DNA of 64,000 bases from Escherichia coli (GCF_024223415.1 NZ_CP100500.1), one strand, 5' to 3'; counted from the stretch's first letter, positions 46,699 to 53,521 are shown. The notes: generated by a model from the letters alone, not told the origin. Numbers and translations are program-made.

Positions 46699-47808
<1,110 letters not shown>

Positions 47809-47887
47809 TGAGGGACGTATTTGTATTAGTCGCGACTTGATCTGACACATGGCCTTGAAAGGTTGAGAGTTACCGGTTTTGATATGA

Positions 47888-48295
47888 GTGTCGAATCCTT
47901 ATCCAAAACAAGAGGTAACTCTCATGCTTCATACTGCCAATCCCGTCATCAAACACAAAGCCGGTTTGCTCAATCTGGCTGAAGAACTCAGCAACGTATC
48001 AAAAGCCTGTAAAATCATGGGCGTTTCGCGTGATACGTTTTATCGTTACCGCGAACTGGTCGCTGAAGGCGGTGTGGATGCGCAGATTAATCGTAGTCGC
48101 CGCGCTCCTAACCTTAAGAACCGTACCGATGAGGCAACTGAACAGGCTGTTGTTGATTACGCCGTCGCTTTCCCGACACATGGTCAGCACCGGGCCAGCA
48201 ACGAGCTGCGTAAACAGGGGGTTTTTATCTCCGACAGTGGTGTCCGTTCTGTCTGGTTACTCCATAACCTTGAGAATCTCAAAAGACGATACTGA
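47888..48295 (+). pseudogene. IS481-family-like transposase N-terminal fragment (HTH only)
   Basis: 135-aa ORF with transposase-type HTH (GVSRDTFYRYRELVAEGGVDAQINRSRRAP...) but no DDE catalytic domain. Confidence 0.5.
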
Positions 48296-48305
48296 ACAAA
48301 TTTTA

Positions 48306-48443
48306 TCAGGTGACGTTCCGTAAAAAGTTGTATGGAGTTCTCGATGCAGTCGGCGCGACTATCAGTACCCCCGCTGAACCCTGGACTATCGGGCCGCCGT
48401 ACTGGGGCATGTCACCCTGGCGTGCCGCTGGTTTTCCGCTAAT
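48306..48443 (-). pseudogene. Orphan Rhs N-terminal (PAAR-region) fragment
   Basis: Minus-strand reading ISGKPAARQGDMPQYGGPIVQGSAG... parallels the rhs start MSGKPAARQGDMTQYGGPIVQGSAG at 53521; ATG replaced by ATT, followed by unrelated sequence. Confidence 0.6.
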
Positions 48444-49039
48444 GGTTTATTTCCTCTTTCTTTCCCGGCAAGAATTTATTTTAATCCGGAAGGATTATTT
48501 ATTTTCAGATAGGGACTCACATTAAACACGTAACATTTTAATTAATGCATGGCTGAATATGTATTACACAATGTCAGATATCGTAAAAGACCAGTGCAAT
48601 TCTATGTAAACTCTCTGACTGTTTATTTTATTTGTTGTTTCAGGGTCGGAACTCACCCTCAATAAACAACTGAATACGAGTAGATATTCATCGTCTGAGC
48701 TATATGGCTTTACACAATAGCCGACATGTCTTTTCTCAGTCAGAAATTTTACTTTTCCTCACTACGAAGTTGACGACTTCGATATGGGATAGACTCTTAA
48801 TTCAAGCAATTACTCTGCACAAGCATCAGGCAATCCAGCTCCAATATTTGTTATAAAATAATGCGTAACATTAATTTCACCAACAAAAAAAAGGTTTACG
48901 CTATCCCCTTGCCCTGGTATTTTACCATATTTACACCACACTTTTTTTGTATCTGGATCATTCTCTGATACGATTTTCGCCACTTGTTCCCTGGCCCTCA
49001 CTGTCAATGTTTTCTTAAACCTACCCCCATCATCATTTG

Positions 49040-49300
49040 TTAGGGAAAAATAAGAAAAAAATAATCATCTTCTACATTTGTGTATATTGATATATCCACC
49101 GCTACGTGCGGAAAAAAATCTGGGAGCCATGTAAAAACTCCATCATTTTCTGGTATTGCCATATAGTTTATGTAATGTTTACTTACAAGAGATTCATCTT
49201 TGTATAAATAAAGATAAGTAATTACGCATAAAACAACAATGATTATAATAGCAAAAATAAATATTATCATCTTTGATAGATTACTTGAGATAGCCAGCAT
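49040..49300 (-). CDS. Small membrane protein; candidate Rhs immunity protein
   Basis: 86-aa ORF with one strong TM helix, AT-rich, directly downstream of and overlapping the rhs 3' end. Confidence 0.4.
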
Positions 49301-52300
49301 CTTGTAAAGCCTTTATCGTTTTTTTATGCTCTGGATTAATATAATCACTACATCTATCTGAGCAATCTGTTGTTGATGGACATGTCAACCCATGGTCATT
49401 TACAGCCAAGTCTTTTTTATTATCTTCAATCATTTCAGAATGGGATAGCTTTACTTTTCTGCCGTACATACCGAACAGATTTAACCCGTAATCTCTAATC
49501 TCTTTTTCATAACCCAGCCCTTTCGCCGATCGGCTAACACCAGCGTCATTTAATTTAGACACTCGACAAAATGCCATACAATGGAAAAATTGATCAGTCC
49601 CACCTAAATTTAATCTCTTCATATCTTCATAAGTATCAGATAATATATCCCATGCTCTTTGATGGTTTAGTTGATCTTTTCTTCTTATTAGCGCTACATC
49701 TGCGGGACTTAACCCTAATGGATCAATACCATTCACCGGATTCAGCGGATACGCATACAGACTCCATCCCCCCTCCAGCCCTATCGGGTCCTGAGTGATA
49801 TACCGCCCCTGCAACGGATCGTAGTACCGGTTCCGGTTGTAGTACAGCCCCGACTCCTTATCATACTGCTGCCCCGGCAGCCGGTACGGCTGGTGCAGGT
49901 GATGCGGGTTCTCCTCATTAAGCTGGTTGCCCCATTCATCATATTCCGCGCTCCACGCCGTATTGCCGTCTTCACTGATAAGCGCCAGCGGCAGGCCCCG
50001 GTAGTCACAGTGATAAAGATGTATTTTTCGCTCAGGCAAATAAACCGGCTCTATCTGTGCCGCCAGCCGCTCCACCGTCAGCCCGCACTGCGCAAGCCAC
50101 TGGCGGCTTTCACTGCTCACGCAGTTTGCCCGGATTTCCCCCTCCAGCCTGTCCAGCAGCCCCACCAGTTCAGCCGGGAACACCACACCGTGGCCGTCTT
50201 CGCTCCCTTCCTGCTGCAGCTTCTCCGCCAGGCTGCGGCACTGCGCTTTCTCCCGTTCACCGTTGTCTGTTTCGATGCGGATGAGCGGCGCGAAGCTCCC
50301 CGGCTGGTATACCGTCTGGATACGCGTGGTGTCGGTCTGTACCGTCGTCAGCCGGTCGCCGTCCCATCCGTACCACGTCACCTCCGGTTTACGCGACAGC
50401 GACATCCATCCCGTCAGGTCACGCTCCCGCCGCCATACCCGTTTCGCCATTCGCCGTCCCAGCGGGTCACAGAGGTAGCGGCTCTCGACCAGTGGCTCGC
50501 CATGCTGTATCCGCGTGTGGAACACCAGGCGGTGCTGGCTGTCGTAGTGATAGTGGTGGGTCCGCTCGTCGTCCGTCCGTATCACACCCGCCGGGATGCG
50601 GTCCGTCTTCTCCGTCAGCCTGCCGTATTCATCGTGGCGGTAGACATAGTGCGCATCCTCCGCGATGCGGTTATCCGGCCACACTGTGAGTGTACTGTCC
50701 GGGTGCAGCTCCGGGTCCGGCAGCCGGTTTCCCGCCGGGTCGGTCGCATACGGGATGCGGATGTCCAGGTCCGGTGCGAGGGTGCGCACGCTCTCCAGCC
50801 TGCCCGTGGCGCTGTAGCCGTATTCCCGCGTCTGCCGGGGGGCGCTGATGCGCACCAGGTCGCCGTTGTCACTCCACCCGTAGTCACGGTCATATACCAG
50901 GCTGTTCAGGTGCTGGCTCTGTAACCGGCCTGCGGGGGTGTATGTGTTGGTCAGTTCATATGCGGCATTACTGCCTGCCATGCTGCCGAAGCTGCGCACC
51001 GTCTCCCGGTGCAGGCGGTCGCGCGTGAACTCCAGCAGCGGCGTCCCGCCCAGCTTCATTCCCGCCAGGTAACCGCTGCCATACGTCAGCCACTCCACCG
51101 GCGGCAGGCTGTCCGGCGTGACGCGGTTTGCCAGCCCCTGTTCGTTGTATGCGTGTTTCGTCTCATGCTGCCACAGCAGTTCCCCCGTCTCCGGGTTCTC
51201 CACCGTCTGGCGTTCGCCGGTCAGGCGGCCCTTATCGTCGTAGCCGTAGTGGGCAGCGACACGGTGGCCTTCACTGAGATGGCTGATGTCTGTCAGCCAG
51301 CCGTGGCCGTCATACTGCCACTGCTCTGCCGGTTCACCGTTTACCGTGCGGTGAGTGATACAGTCCGATTCATCGTAGTACCAGAGGGTGACAAGCCCCT
51401 CATCTTCACTCTGCGTGAGTTTTCCTGTCAGGTCATAATGATAACGCAGCGTCCGCCCGTCAAAGCCGCCCTGCTGTACCAGGCGGTCCAGCGCATCGTA
51501 ACTGAAATCACTGTGGCTGCCGTTCTCGTTAGTCAGACTGATGACACGTCCGGCAACATCGTACTCCATACTGCGCGTCAGCCCGCCCTGCGTGGTGCTG
51601 ACCGCCTTTCCCCACGCATCGTACTGTGTCTCGCTCCGGTTGCCGTCCGGGGTGATAACGGCAGTCAGGTCGCCTGCGGCGTTGTACTCATACCGCGTTT
51701 CATGGCCCTGTGCGTCTTTCACCGAGATTAACCGGCCACGGTTGTCATAGCGGCGGTAAAGGCTGATGCCTTCCTCGCGGTGGACCGCCGTCATCTGGCC
51801 GAAGCGGTCGTATTCATAGCGGGTCTGGTAGCCCGAGCAGTCGGTGAACGCCAGCAACTGACCGTAGCGGCTCCAGGTCATCTGCCGGGTGCTGCCCGTC
51901 GCATCTGTTGTCGTGGCCGGTAATTCACTGTGCGGATTATCATAAGCATGCCGGATGACGTCCCCGCTGCGCGATGTCTCCGATACCAGCCTGCCCGGTT
52001 CATCATATGCCCGGCGGCTCTCCAGCCCGTCCGGGGACACCACCGCCGTCAGCTGGTTCCCGTCGTTATAGTAAAATTTCGTCTCCCGCCCGTCCGGTGT
52101 GGTGATGTCCGTGATATCGCCGGACACCACATTCAGACCGTACTCTGTCCGCCGTCCCGCCGCGTCCGTCTGCGCCGTGAGCCTTCCTGCCGCGTCATAC
52201 CCGCTGTGCGTGACGCTGCCGTCCGCCAGTTCTTTTTTCACCACCCGCTTCAGCCCGGCCCCGCCTTCTGTATGCAGCACCTCACGCCGGTTCAGGCTAT

Positions 52301-53521
52301 CCGTGACGGTGATGCGGTCCTGCTCATACTGGTAGCGGTAACTCAGGCCTGCCGGGTTCAGCTGCTCCACCACCCGCCCGGTATCGTCGTAGCGGTAGCG
52401 CATCTCCGGCCTTCCCGCATAACGGTGCCCCACCATCCGGCCCGGGTGCTGCGCGTCATACGTGAAAGCGCGCACCTGCGTATTGCTGCGGTCATATACC
52501 GCCAGCAGTTCACCGGCTTCCGTATACGTGTACCGCACCAGTGGCGCACCGGGCAGGCTCTCCGGGTATGCCGGATCGTGCATCAGCCACACCGCCGAAA
52601 GGCGGATGCCCCTGTCGGGGCCGTATTCGGTACCGGGCAGTGTGTCGGGGAACGCTGAGGCTGAGAGAGGGCGGGAACGGTCAGAAGAAGATAGCGAAGA
52701 GGTGCGGGCCTCTTCCGCACGCTGCGCCTGCGTGGTCAGCACCAGACGGAACTCCCGCCCGGCACCGTCCGTCACGCCGGTGATTCCCCCGGCCAGGTCA
52801 CCGGCGGCCTCACGCCGGTGATTCCCCCGGCCAGGTCACCGGCGGCCTCACGCCGGTACGTCAGCGTCCGCCCGAAGCGGTCCGCCATCCCGGTAAGCAC
52901 CCGGTACGGCGGCAGCGGCGCTGGCAGTACGTCCTCAGCACCCGGCACCCGCTCAGACCACCCCAGTATCCACCACGGCCCCTGTGCGCTGTTGGTCGCC
53001 AGGTAAAGATGCGGGCTTAACCGGATATCCGGCGGCAGCGACGCCCACAGCCGTGCCAGCGTATGGCCGTCCGGCTGTGCTGCCTTACCACCGCGCACCA
53101 GCCACAGGGACTCGCTGCGGCTGTACACCGCCTCACCCGGCAGCAGCGGCTCAAAGTGAATGCTCCGTCCGCCGTTGTCGTTGAGTACCAGTGCATCATC
53201 GCGTAGCTGTAAGCGGATATCAGAAGGCGCTTTCCAGCCGGGGCCAAAAATCCCCACCGGTGCAGGCGTCTTCGTCCGGTAGCTGCTGTAGGTGCGGGAG
53301 AGAATGAACGGCAGCGGGCCGGGCAGCGCAAGGTCCGTCTCGCCGGGCAGCACCTTCGCCCCCAGCAGCGGATTTACCGGGTTGCCCGAAGTCATCCCGC
53401 CCGGACACACCGAGCACGCCACGCCAGTTGGCGCGCCAATTCTTACACCTGCCGAACCCTGGACAATGGGACCGCCATACTGAGTCATATCTCCCTGACG
53501 CGCCGCTGGTTTTCCGCTCAT
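49281..53521 (-). pseudogene. Rhs family polymorphic toxin gene frameshifted by a 38-bp tandem duplication
   Basis: ORFs 52772..53521 (PAAR-like N-terminus) and 49281..52775 (YD-repeat core, DPIGL, AT-rich C-terminal tip) are split by a perfect tandem duplication at 52772-52847. Confidence 0.85.
52772..52847. repeat. Perfect 38-bp tandem duplication inside rhs
   Basis: TCACGCCGGTGATTCCCCCGGCCAGGTCACCGGCGGCC occurs twice in tandem (52772-52809, 52810-52847), bounded by the 10-bp microhomology TCACGCCGGT. Confidence 0.85.

Follow-up and report, generated by a model that had tools for sequence, protein, structure and literature searches.

Rhs toxins whose C-terminal tips resemble animal serum amyloid A (SAA) have already been described in Escherichia coli. 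An in-silico survey of enterohaemorrhagic E. coli (EHEC) EDL933 (2020) reported that the C-terminus of RhsD (z0651) resembles human SAA1 (TM-score 0.623); in the same survey, PF00277 was matched by seven PAAR-Rhs proteins of O157, and z0654 was put forward as candidate immunity gene (PMC7216683). The prok-SAA family, which belongs to the SAW clade, was defined by Burroughs, Nicastro and Aravind (eLife 2025) as a four-helix cone with a fifth helix, a His/Glu/Asp site and an sNxxGR motif, found in tips of polymorphic toxins including Rhs proteins; the immunity proteins of toxins of the wider Lipocone superfamily were predicted to be membrane-bound or periplasmic (PMC12419801). Among Lipocone toxins, enzymatic characterisation is limited to TelC of Streptococcus intermedius, which acts on lipid II outside the cytoplasm and cleaves it; TipC, the immunity protein of TelC, likewise works extracellularly (PMC12419801). 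A further effector, BteO of Bacteroides fragilis, was reported as non-enzymatic and OmpA-binding, with an immunity protein, BtiO, that mimics the OmpA C-terminal domain (PMC12541434). Here we compare with these systems the rhs locus in a 64,000-nucleotide (nt) stretch of an E. coli chromosome (NZ_CP100500.1; the whole stretch is called the window below), focusing on the C-terminal tip of its Rhs protein and on ybbD, the candidate immunity gene that follows it.

The feature is a widespread toxin/immunity module of the rhsD locus, composed of a prok-SAA tip and YbbD; it is ordinary, and it has largely been described already. The explanation that we favour as a whole, with a probability of about 75%, is that an rhsD-locus Rhs toxin with a prok-SAA tip and its immunity protein YbbD are both disabled in this strain, and that the pair would act in the periplasm where it is intact. 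The initial annotation, made from the window sequence, had proposed a variable Rhs C-terminal toxin tip with an immunity gene behind it, and this part of its reading is supported by the conserved pairing with YbbD_head genes reported below.

The window runs in the reverse orientation of the K-12 region ybbP-rhsD-...-ylbG-selU-allS-allA-allR-gcl, and rhs and ybbD lie on its minus strand. The main Rhs open reading frame (ORF; 1164 amino acids (aa), 49281-52775 in the ORF list) comprises the YD-repeat core, which is the rest of a broken gene up to the DPIGL boundary (49791..52775, GC 63%), a 27-residue core/tip junction with a G6 run at 49768-49773 (49710..49790), the 142-aa toxin tip from SPADVAL to GYLK (49284..49709) and the stop codon (49281-49283). 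The core terminates in DPIGL (codon start 49790), and 17 residues on there is a DPLGL (49724), from whose start 147 residues, including the 13-residue string first noted, were counted to the Rhs C-terminus, in agreement with the tip of about 150 residues first noted. The change from GC-rich to AT-rich DNA past the core boundary was also borne out, the GC content being 62.9% for the core, 37.0% for the tip (49284-49724) and 32.8% across 48810-49300. The locus has the features of a Rhs/YD-repeat polymorphic toxin, namely a YD core, a DPxGL motif followed by a tip of differing composition, and a downstream immunity gene. The core was 99.95% identical to the "RHS element core protein" of SCU-316, whose orthologous locus is intact, with a single 1400-aa Rhs coding sequence (CDS) and a 163-aa CDS. 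The first 420 aa of the SCU-316 Rhs protein matched DUF6531 (E=1.9e-18), RHS_repeat (E=7.6e-6) and, weakly, PAAR_motif.

Simple searches gave faint signals for the nature of the tip. The Pfam SAA model matched it weakly (E=6.7e-4), PDB sequences searched with the tip sequence alone returned SAA as a weak match (E=0.31), with the shared string AWD...Y.DM+..N..G.D++FH, and scans of the tip with NCBIfam and PADLOC gave no match. A word-indexed protein search reached close enterobacterial relatives only, and an exhaustive hidden Markov model (HMM) search of 1.84 billion representative proteins was needed for the wider family; this search recovered 161 tip homologues. In 137 of the 143 homologues that were rescored locally the domain ended at most 25 aa from the C-terminus, as expected of toxin tips. 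An alignment of 112 homologous domains showed H43, E70 and D100 to be invariant and D39, C44, C48, D73, D96, N104, G107, C116 and C120 to be nearly so, and the window tip keeps H43, E70, D73, D96, D100 and N104. Human SAA1 aligned with the family at the H, E, D96, D100, N104 and G107 positions. An earlier profile search had been partly circular, because its alignment included human SAA1, and it was repeated with bacterial sequences only; the profile of the 112 bacterial homologues matched human SAA1 with E=1.1e-17 for a PDB-sized database.

The AlphaFold2 model of the tip had a predicted local distance difference test score (pLDDT) of 96.6 and a predicted TM-score (pTM) of 0.89, with helices at residues 2-33, 39-51, 56-78, 90-108 and 116-123, plus a further one at 129-137. 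When this model was compared with the PDB by Foldseek, the top seven matches were all SAA1 or SAA3 (probability ~1.0, TM-score 0.67-0.74), and the next match after these seven had a probability of 0.12. The model shows the four-helix cone and the short fifth helix of prok-SAA domains, together with their characteristic residues (His in helix 2, Glu in helix 3, Asp in helix 4 and a polar residue at the end of helix 3), and the tip is soluble in character (maximum 19-mer hydropathy 0.55). In addition, the prok-SAA family file lists HAU8267270.1, which is the sequence of a Kluyvera homologue (P0021) 57% identical to the tip. Profile matches and the predicted fold together place the tip in the prok-SAA family of the Lipocone superfamily, as a bacterial homologue of animal serum amyloid A. 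The domain and structure searches with the C-terminal residues therefore led to a recognised family, and the initial description of the toxin domain as unrecognised has to be abandoned in view of the Pfam SAA match, the SAA1 profile match, the SAA fold matches, the relative in the prok-SAA file and the SAA-like domain reported in 2020. The recognition is computational only. The searches did not lead to any characterised Rhs toxin for which another immunity protein is known; no member of the tip family has been characterised experimentally.

Behind the tip, two small ORFs are found on the minus strand at 49040-49300 (86 aa) and 48810-49007 (65 aa), as the initial annotation had listed them; the first carries a 19-residue hydrophobic segment with a mean Kyte-Doolittle value of 3.37, and its start, which is the ybbD start, overlaps the rhs stop by 20 nt. 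The ORFs and the hydrophobic segment thus stood, but their description as a single-transmembrane ORF and a second, separate ORF did not: the two are halves of one 163-aa gene split by a slip from T8 to T7. Aligned with window positions 47800-50000, SCU-316, the nearest complete genome, showed a single 1-nt gap; over 48810-49300 it annotates one 492-nt CDS (163 aa, WP_000879783.1), and its sole difference from the window there is T8 instead of T7 at 49055-61. In the window, the 5' half of ybbD (49040..49300) encodes the N-terminal transmembrane anchor and part of the YbbD_head region, the T7 run (49055..49061) is the site of the 1-nt deletion, and the 3' half continues in the original frame over 48810..49054, with the 65-aa ORF as its last part and a second T8 run at 48885-48892.

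Once repaired, ybbD matched NCBIfam NF011298 over residues 1-163 (E=3e-114), and precomputed Pfam annotation assigns the 163-aa protein to PF26610, YbbD_head. In the window itself the full-length match is replaced, because of the T7 frameshift, by two separate partial ones: the 86-aa ORF covers NF011298 residues 1-85 (and matches NF011297 with E=4.7e-58) and the 65-aa ORF covers positions 99-163 (E=6e-42). NCBIfam labels the 163-aa family as "hypothetical" only, and a weak match of the ybbD product to NF007301 was also seen. YbbD homologues at 49-71% identity are 163-164 aa long and conserved across the junction (YFFSYF, then a well-conserved C-terminal half), which identifies T8 as the functional state and T7 as a frameshift. 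The competing view, two independent small genes (a single-transmembrane immunity gene and an unrelated ORF) in a module foreign to K-12, could appeal to the presence of both ORFs and to the separate NCBI model, NF011297, for the 86-aa form. We give it next to no credence, as it is refuted by the one extra T that fuses the ORFs into a 163-aa ORF annotated in many genomes, by the NF011298 positions of the 65-aa ORF, and by the homologues that keep the full frame over the junction; moreover, K-12 ybbD is the same sequence.

Intact 492-nt CDSs are annotated in SCU-316, O121, STEC1590, strain 4 and NT1F34. The region was present in 2303 of 5426 complete E. coli genomes (67/68-nt queries), 1712 of these with the exact T7 context and 539 with the exact T8 context, although some of these homopolymer-length calls are possibly assembly errors. 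T7 is common to the K-12 ybbD pseudogene and O157:H7. Window-like arrangements carried T8 in SCU-316, O121, STEC1590 and YZLc4-1 and T7 in the window, O157:H7, E2855 and 2010C_5028, and K-12-like arrangements carried T8 in strain 4 and NT1F34 and T7 in K-12. Since both alleles occur in both arrangements, slippage of the run, or its exchange through recombination, has happened on more than one occasion.

That T7 is the majority allele, and that it is found in both arrangements and in at least two sequence backgrounds, could also mean that a T7 ybbD is still alive, either because the 86-aa anchored fragment protects or because a -1 slip of the ribosome or RNA polymerase on U UUU UUU serves as a programmed or phase-variable switch. 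The T run does lie in the exact X XXY YYZ phase (TA[T TTT TTT] CTT), and a simulated -1 slip recreated the 163-aa protein residue for residue; the 86-aa product keeps the anchor and most of the best-conserved stretch of the family, and in O157:H7 an intact toxin coexists with T7. Beyond the in-phase slippery heptamer, however, the marks of programmed -1 frameshifting were missing: no RNA structure that might stimulate slippage followed the T run (fold z=+0.41), and the -1 frame was not conserved. In O157:H7 the 3' half of ybbD is frameshifted a second time, so that a slip at the first run would not rescue it, and in an AlphaFold2 model of YbbD the T7 break would fall within the second strand, at about residue 82, with the greater part of the fold still to come. 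Most genomes with T7 have the toxin as an orphan that is not expressed, and decay at a slippage-prone run explains the frequency of the allele, while part of the homopolymer lengths in assemblies may be sequencing errors. A living T7 gene is, in our judgement, quite improbable, and we retain the reading of T7 as a frameshift.

We assign a putative immunity role to YbbD because YbbD_head genes and prok-SAA tips share a conserved neighbourhood. A YbbD_head gene lies directly downstream of the prok-SAA Rhs tip in each of the related loci L005, L008, L015/L016 and L018. In L005 (1-1000), where the tip is 82% identical to that of the window, the partner is a YbbD homologue 49% identical, and in L008 (1-994) it is 71% identical, both with the same 20-nt overlap; the L015/L016 tip (50% identical) is followed by a 173-aa YbbD_head protein and the L018 tip (36% identical) by one of 151 aa. 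The pairing persists, then, where the tips are only 36-50% identical. As the two L005 values illustrate, the tip is far better conserved than its partner in related loci. At L015/L016 (1800-5700; CP029992.1) the tip belongs to a 380-aa orphan Rhs fragment; the fragment and its YbbD_head partner are part of an array that also holds remnants of further tip/immunity modules (Ntox16, TseH, Imm58).

This neighbourhood also bears on the suggestion, made for EHEC RhsD, that the SAA-like tip is aimed at the animal host, through SAA mimicry in inflammation or chemotaxis, or through aggregation. The idea is founded on the structural similarity to human SAA1 (PMC7216683). Against it, divergent tips keep a tightly linked, overlapping and membrane-anchored partner, which is the hallmark of antibacterial toxin/immunity pairs; the family consists mostly of C-terminal tips of polymorphic toxins, and commensal and laboratory strains of E. 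coli often carry the module. A host target therefore seems very unlikely to us.

In all the YbbD_head proteins that we compared, a (W)LPDFFP-like motif comes after a hydrophobic anchor at the N-terminus. Two cysteines of the soluble part of YbbD (C123 and C161) are conserved among close relatives, and none across divergent YbbD_head proteins. This pattern rules out YbbD as a member of Imm-SAA, which was compared by its description (an alpha-helix and four beta-strands with four invariant cysteines). A relationship of YbbD with YbfC, from an immunity-like gene of the K-12 rhsC locus, was likewise rejected (E=6.7).

In K-12 the order is rhsD, ybbC, the pseudogenes ylbH, ybbD and ylbI, and then ylbG. 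The last 236 Rhs residues of the window were 98% identical to the ylbH translation, with all residues identical after DPIGL. The initial annotation had rightly found the downstream region shorter than rhsD-ybbC-ylbH-ybbD of K-12 (1601 versus 2798 nt, ~1197 bp less) and the arrangement unlike that of K-12, as the rhsD-CT/ybbC module is missing from the window; a search of the window for ybbC sequence found none. Its conclusion that the module had been swapped is not supported, given that the tip and the product of K-12 ylbH are 100% identical and that the two ORFs correspond to K-12 ybbD, which also has T7. The K-12 surplus of ~1.2 kb consists of rhsD-CT, ybbC and a repeated piece of the core, and we read K-12 as carrying an extra rhsD-CT/ybbC module inserted upstream, not a different module in place of tip/ybbD. 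The K-12 ylbH/ybbD genes are orphans displaced by the newer rhsD-CT/ybbC module, and the window has the arrangement without the insertion. This difference fits the C-terminal displacement model for rhs evolution that Jackson et al. reportedly put forward in 2009. Besides the presence of the same tip and ORFs in K-12 as ylbH and ybbD, the initial annotation had missed the 1-nt deletion in ybbD and a 38-bp duplication in rhs, 3 kb upstream.

At least 80% of 47800-50000 was held by 2729 of the 5426 complete genomes. Among 60 rows evenly spaced over 3618 matching records, ~13-15 were window-like (including O157:H7, O121 and O111) and 28 were K-12-like; proportions over the ~2650 loci are estimates from this sample and from exact-match counts with short queries. 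The window arrangement is thus common, not unusual.

The rhs gene of the window is itself broken. A perfect 38-bp tandem duplication (52772..52847; copies 52772-52809 and 52810-52847), detected by repeat finding and in the sequence, is bounded by the 10-bp microhomology ACCGGCGTGA, and its copies are 100% identical. It shifts the rhs frame and severs the N-terminal part, a 249-aa ORF with a PAAR-like start followed by DUF6531 (52772..53521, minus strand), from the 1164-aa remainder. When a query spanning the duplication was searched against the complete E. coli genomes, a single copy (103-nt stretch) was found in 15 of the 15 best records listed, and the duplication appears private to the window strain. 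Without the uninterrupted frame of a functional Rhs toxin, the window copy is a pseudogene of the Rhs family. As a result of the duplication and the T7 slip, the window encodes no full-length form of either the toxin or the immunity protein.

Other strains show other damage. At the DPIGLEGGW junction, where the window has G6 (49768-49773), a G7 haplotype was found with rhs annotated as frameshifted in E2855, YZLc4-1 and 2010C_5028; the tip is then an ORF of its own, 151 aa long (WP_001013164.1, ~412-429 genomes), and the exact haplotype occurred in 412 genomes. In NT1F34, which is K-12-like (L020, 1801-2999), the main rhsD has an internal stop, whereas T8 keeps the orphan ybbD intact. The Rhs protein of O157:H7 H2495, with the tip, is intact at 1398 aa, next to a ybbD with T7 and a second T8-to-T7 slip (L004, ~3700) in the run that is still T8 at 48885-48892 of the window.

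In intact strains, we propose, the tip would be released by the Rhs shell, and a type VI secretion system (T6SS) would carry it, by way of the PAAR-like N-terminus, to the periplasm of adjacent cells. The twin CX3C motifs (C44/C48 and C116/C120, in helices 2 and 5) could then staple the domain by disulfides, a pairing that the sequence suggests. The His/Glu/Asp site would most likely cleave a phosphate-linked head group off a lipid carrier, for example lipid II, in the manner of TelC, and YbbD would block the tip on the periplasmic side of the inner membrane. The membrane anchor of the immunity protein, the general pattern published for Lipocone toxins and the CX3C motifs suggest action outside the cytoplasm, and the attack on a lipid head group is proposed by analogy with the cleavage of lipid II by TelC.

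Alternatively, the tip might be a non-enzymatic toxin that binds the peptidoglycan-binding C-terminal domains of the OmpA family in the periplasm and disturbs the envelope, with YbbD as a decoy or blocker. BteO provides the precedent, being toxic in the periplasm only and binding OmpA-C-like domains (PMC12541434), and binding of OmpA by SAA is cited in the Lipocone paper (PMC12419801). The tip model is structurally similar to BteO, and the BteO mutants that abolish toxicity (R143/H144, H167/E168, D187 and D191) follow an xH...xE...Dx3D pattern like that of F42/H43, K69/E70, D96 and D100 in the tip. The likeness is one of pattern, and BteO was undetected by the sequence profile at E up to 10. 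The invariance or near-invariance of His, Glu, Asp and Asn over 112 divergent homologues is more typical of a catalytic site, and the YbbD model has no OmpA-C-like fold, though the model is poor. We regard a purely OmpA-directed toxin as unlikely, and keep cleavage of a lipid-carrier head group as the proposed activity.

Several observations weigh against the explanation that we favour. At the sNxxGR position the tip reads V-N104-D-H-G107-L, so that Asn and Gly are retained and Arg is replaced by Leu (the family has I, L or R there). The AlphaFold2 model of YbbD, built from six sequences, is of low confidence (pLDDT 64.7), and a fold search with it gave no significant match, the best (E=0.043, TM-score at most 0.28) being DcrB and Tsi3. 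As to delivery, the PAAR_motif match in the SCU-316 orthologue is weak (E=0.084), no T6SS genes were found next to the locus and, to our knowledge, K-12 has no T6SS. The lipid-carrier target of prok-SAA is a published prediction only (PMC12419801), and no biochemical activity is known for any prok-SAA domain. Finally, the intact toxin of O157:H7 beside a doubly frameshifted ybbD is unexpected if the toxin is active and full-length immunity indispensable. Possibly the toxin is unexpressed or undelivered in that strain, or the producer needs no immunity, the toxin being inert in the cytoplasm and sister cells not firing at each other; it is also possible that the 86-aa fragment suffices for protection, or that low-level recoding restores some full-length protein.

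Further downstream, the window contains a ylbI-type remnant of a Rhs N-terminus (pseudogene; 48348..48443, minus strand), located from the SCU-316 and K-12 annotations and the K-12 sequence, and ylbG (47924..48289, plus strand; ORF 47888-48295), a truncated helix-turn-helix (transposase-like) gene annotated in SCU-316, K-12 and O157. The two make up what is left of the decaying tail of the Rhs element next to mnmH/selU, with ylbG marking the end of the element. A promoter and terminator scan of 48200-49900 stayed at chance level.

These results join the K-12 pseudogenes ylbH and ybbD, the O157 RhsD tip and the prok-SAA family in one picture. The module is found in about half of the complete E. 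coli genomes and is ordinary as a genomic feature, yet its immunity gene and, in one haplotype, its toxin junction have been inactivated repeatedly at homopolymer runs, and some strains, such as O157:H7, apparently keep an intact toxin with a broken immunity gene. What interest remains comes from the toxin family being biochemically uncharacterised and homologous to serum amyloid A, and a tip/YbbD pair in the best-studied bacterium offers a convenient route to what SAA-fold proteins do. More speculatively, and by analogy, the commonest E. coli Rhs tip (ylbH in K-12, RhsD in O157) could be a working bacterial serum amyloid A that acts through OmpA and/or through cleavage of lipid-carrier head groups, an idea that we hold to be doubtful. 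The tip keeps the whole His/Glu/Asp/Asn site found in animal SAA too, and BteO, its nearest bacterial relative of solved structure, kills by engaging OmpA, to which mammalian SAA also binds. If the idea were true, a tractable E. coli pair would reveal the ancestral biochemical activity of SAA, and the "non-enzymatic" site of BteO could prove to be a Lipocone active site.

Set against the tip, TelC shares the superfamily but belongs to the ClaspCone-CapCone-TelC clade, is delivered by a type VII secretion system and has a Gram-positive origin; TelC was not among the listed fold matches of the tip model. BteO/BtiO (PDB 9UU0) has no detectable sequence similarity to the tip, and BteO is a stand-alone effector with its own N-terminal transmembrane helix, whereas the window toxin is a Rhs tip. 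Animal SAA (SAA1 and SAA3; 4IP8, 6PXZ, 4Q5G) shares the motifs M..N.GxDkyFH, RE and DsxxDxxaNxxG with the tip; it lacks the twin CX3C cysteines and the Asp at position 73, and it is a secreted host protein without Rhs carrier or immunity partner. The prok-SAA domains have the same four-helix core and short fifth helix, His/Glu/Asp-Asn positions, helix-capping Gly, soluble character and use as Rhs tips. The partner of the window tip is a YbbD_head protein, unlike the four-cysteine Imm-SAA or BamE-like partners described for that family (PMC12419801), and 37 supplementary files of the same paper gave no match for ylbH, YbbD or Escherichia. Among the closest known systems are those of E. coli itself, all at the same chromosomal site between ybbP and ylbG/mnmH: K-12 ylbH, with its identical tip product and a ybbD with the same T7, and EHEC EDL933 RhsD (z0651) with RhsDI (z0654), of the same tip and downstream gene type, the O157:H7 tip being one substitution from that of the window and its ybbD carrying the same T7. 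In K-12 the tip is orphaned behind the inserted rhsD-CT/ybbC, and in the window it sits on the main gene; in O157 rhs is intact and ybbD has a second frameshift, and in the window rhs is broken by its private 38-bp duplication.

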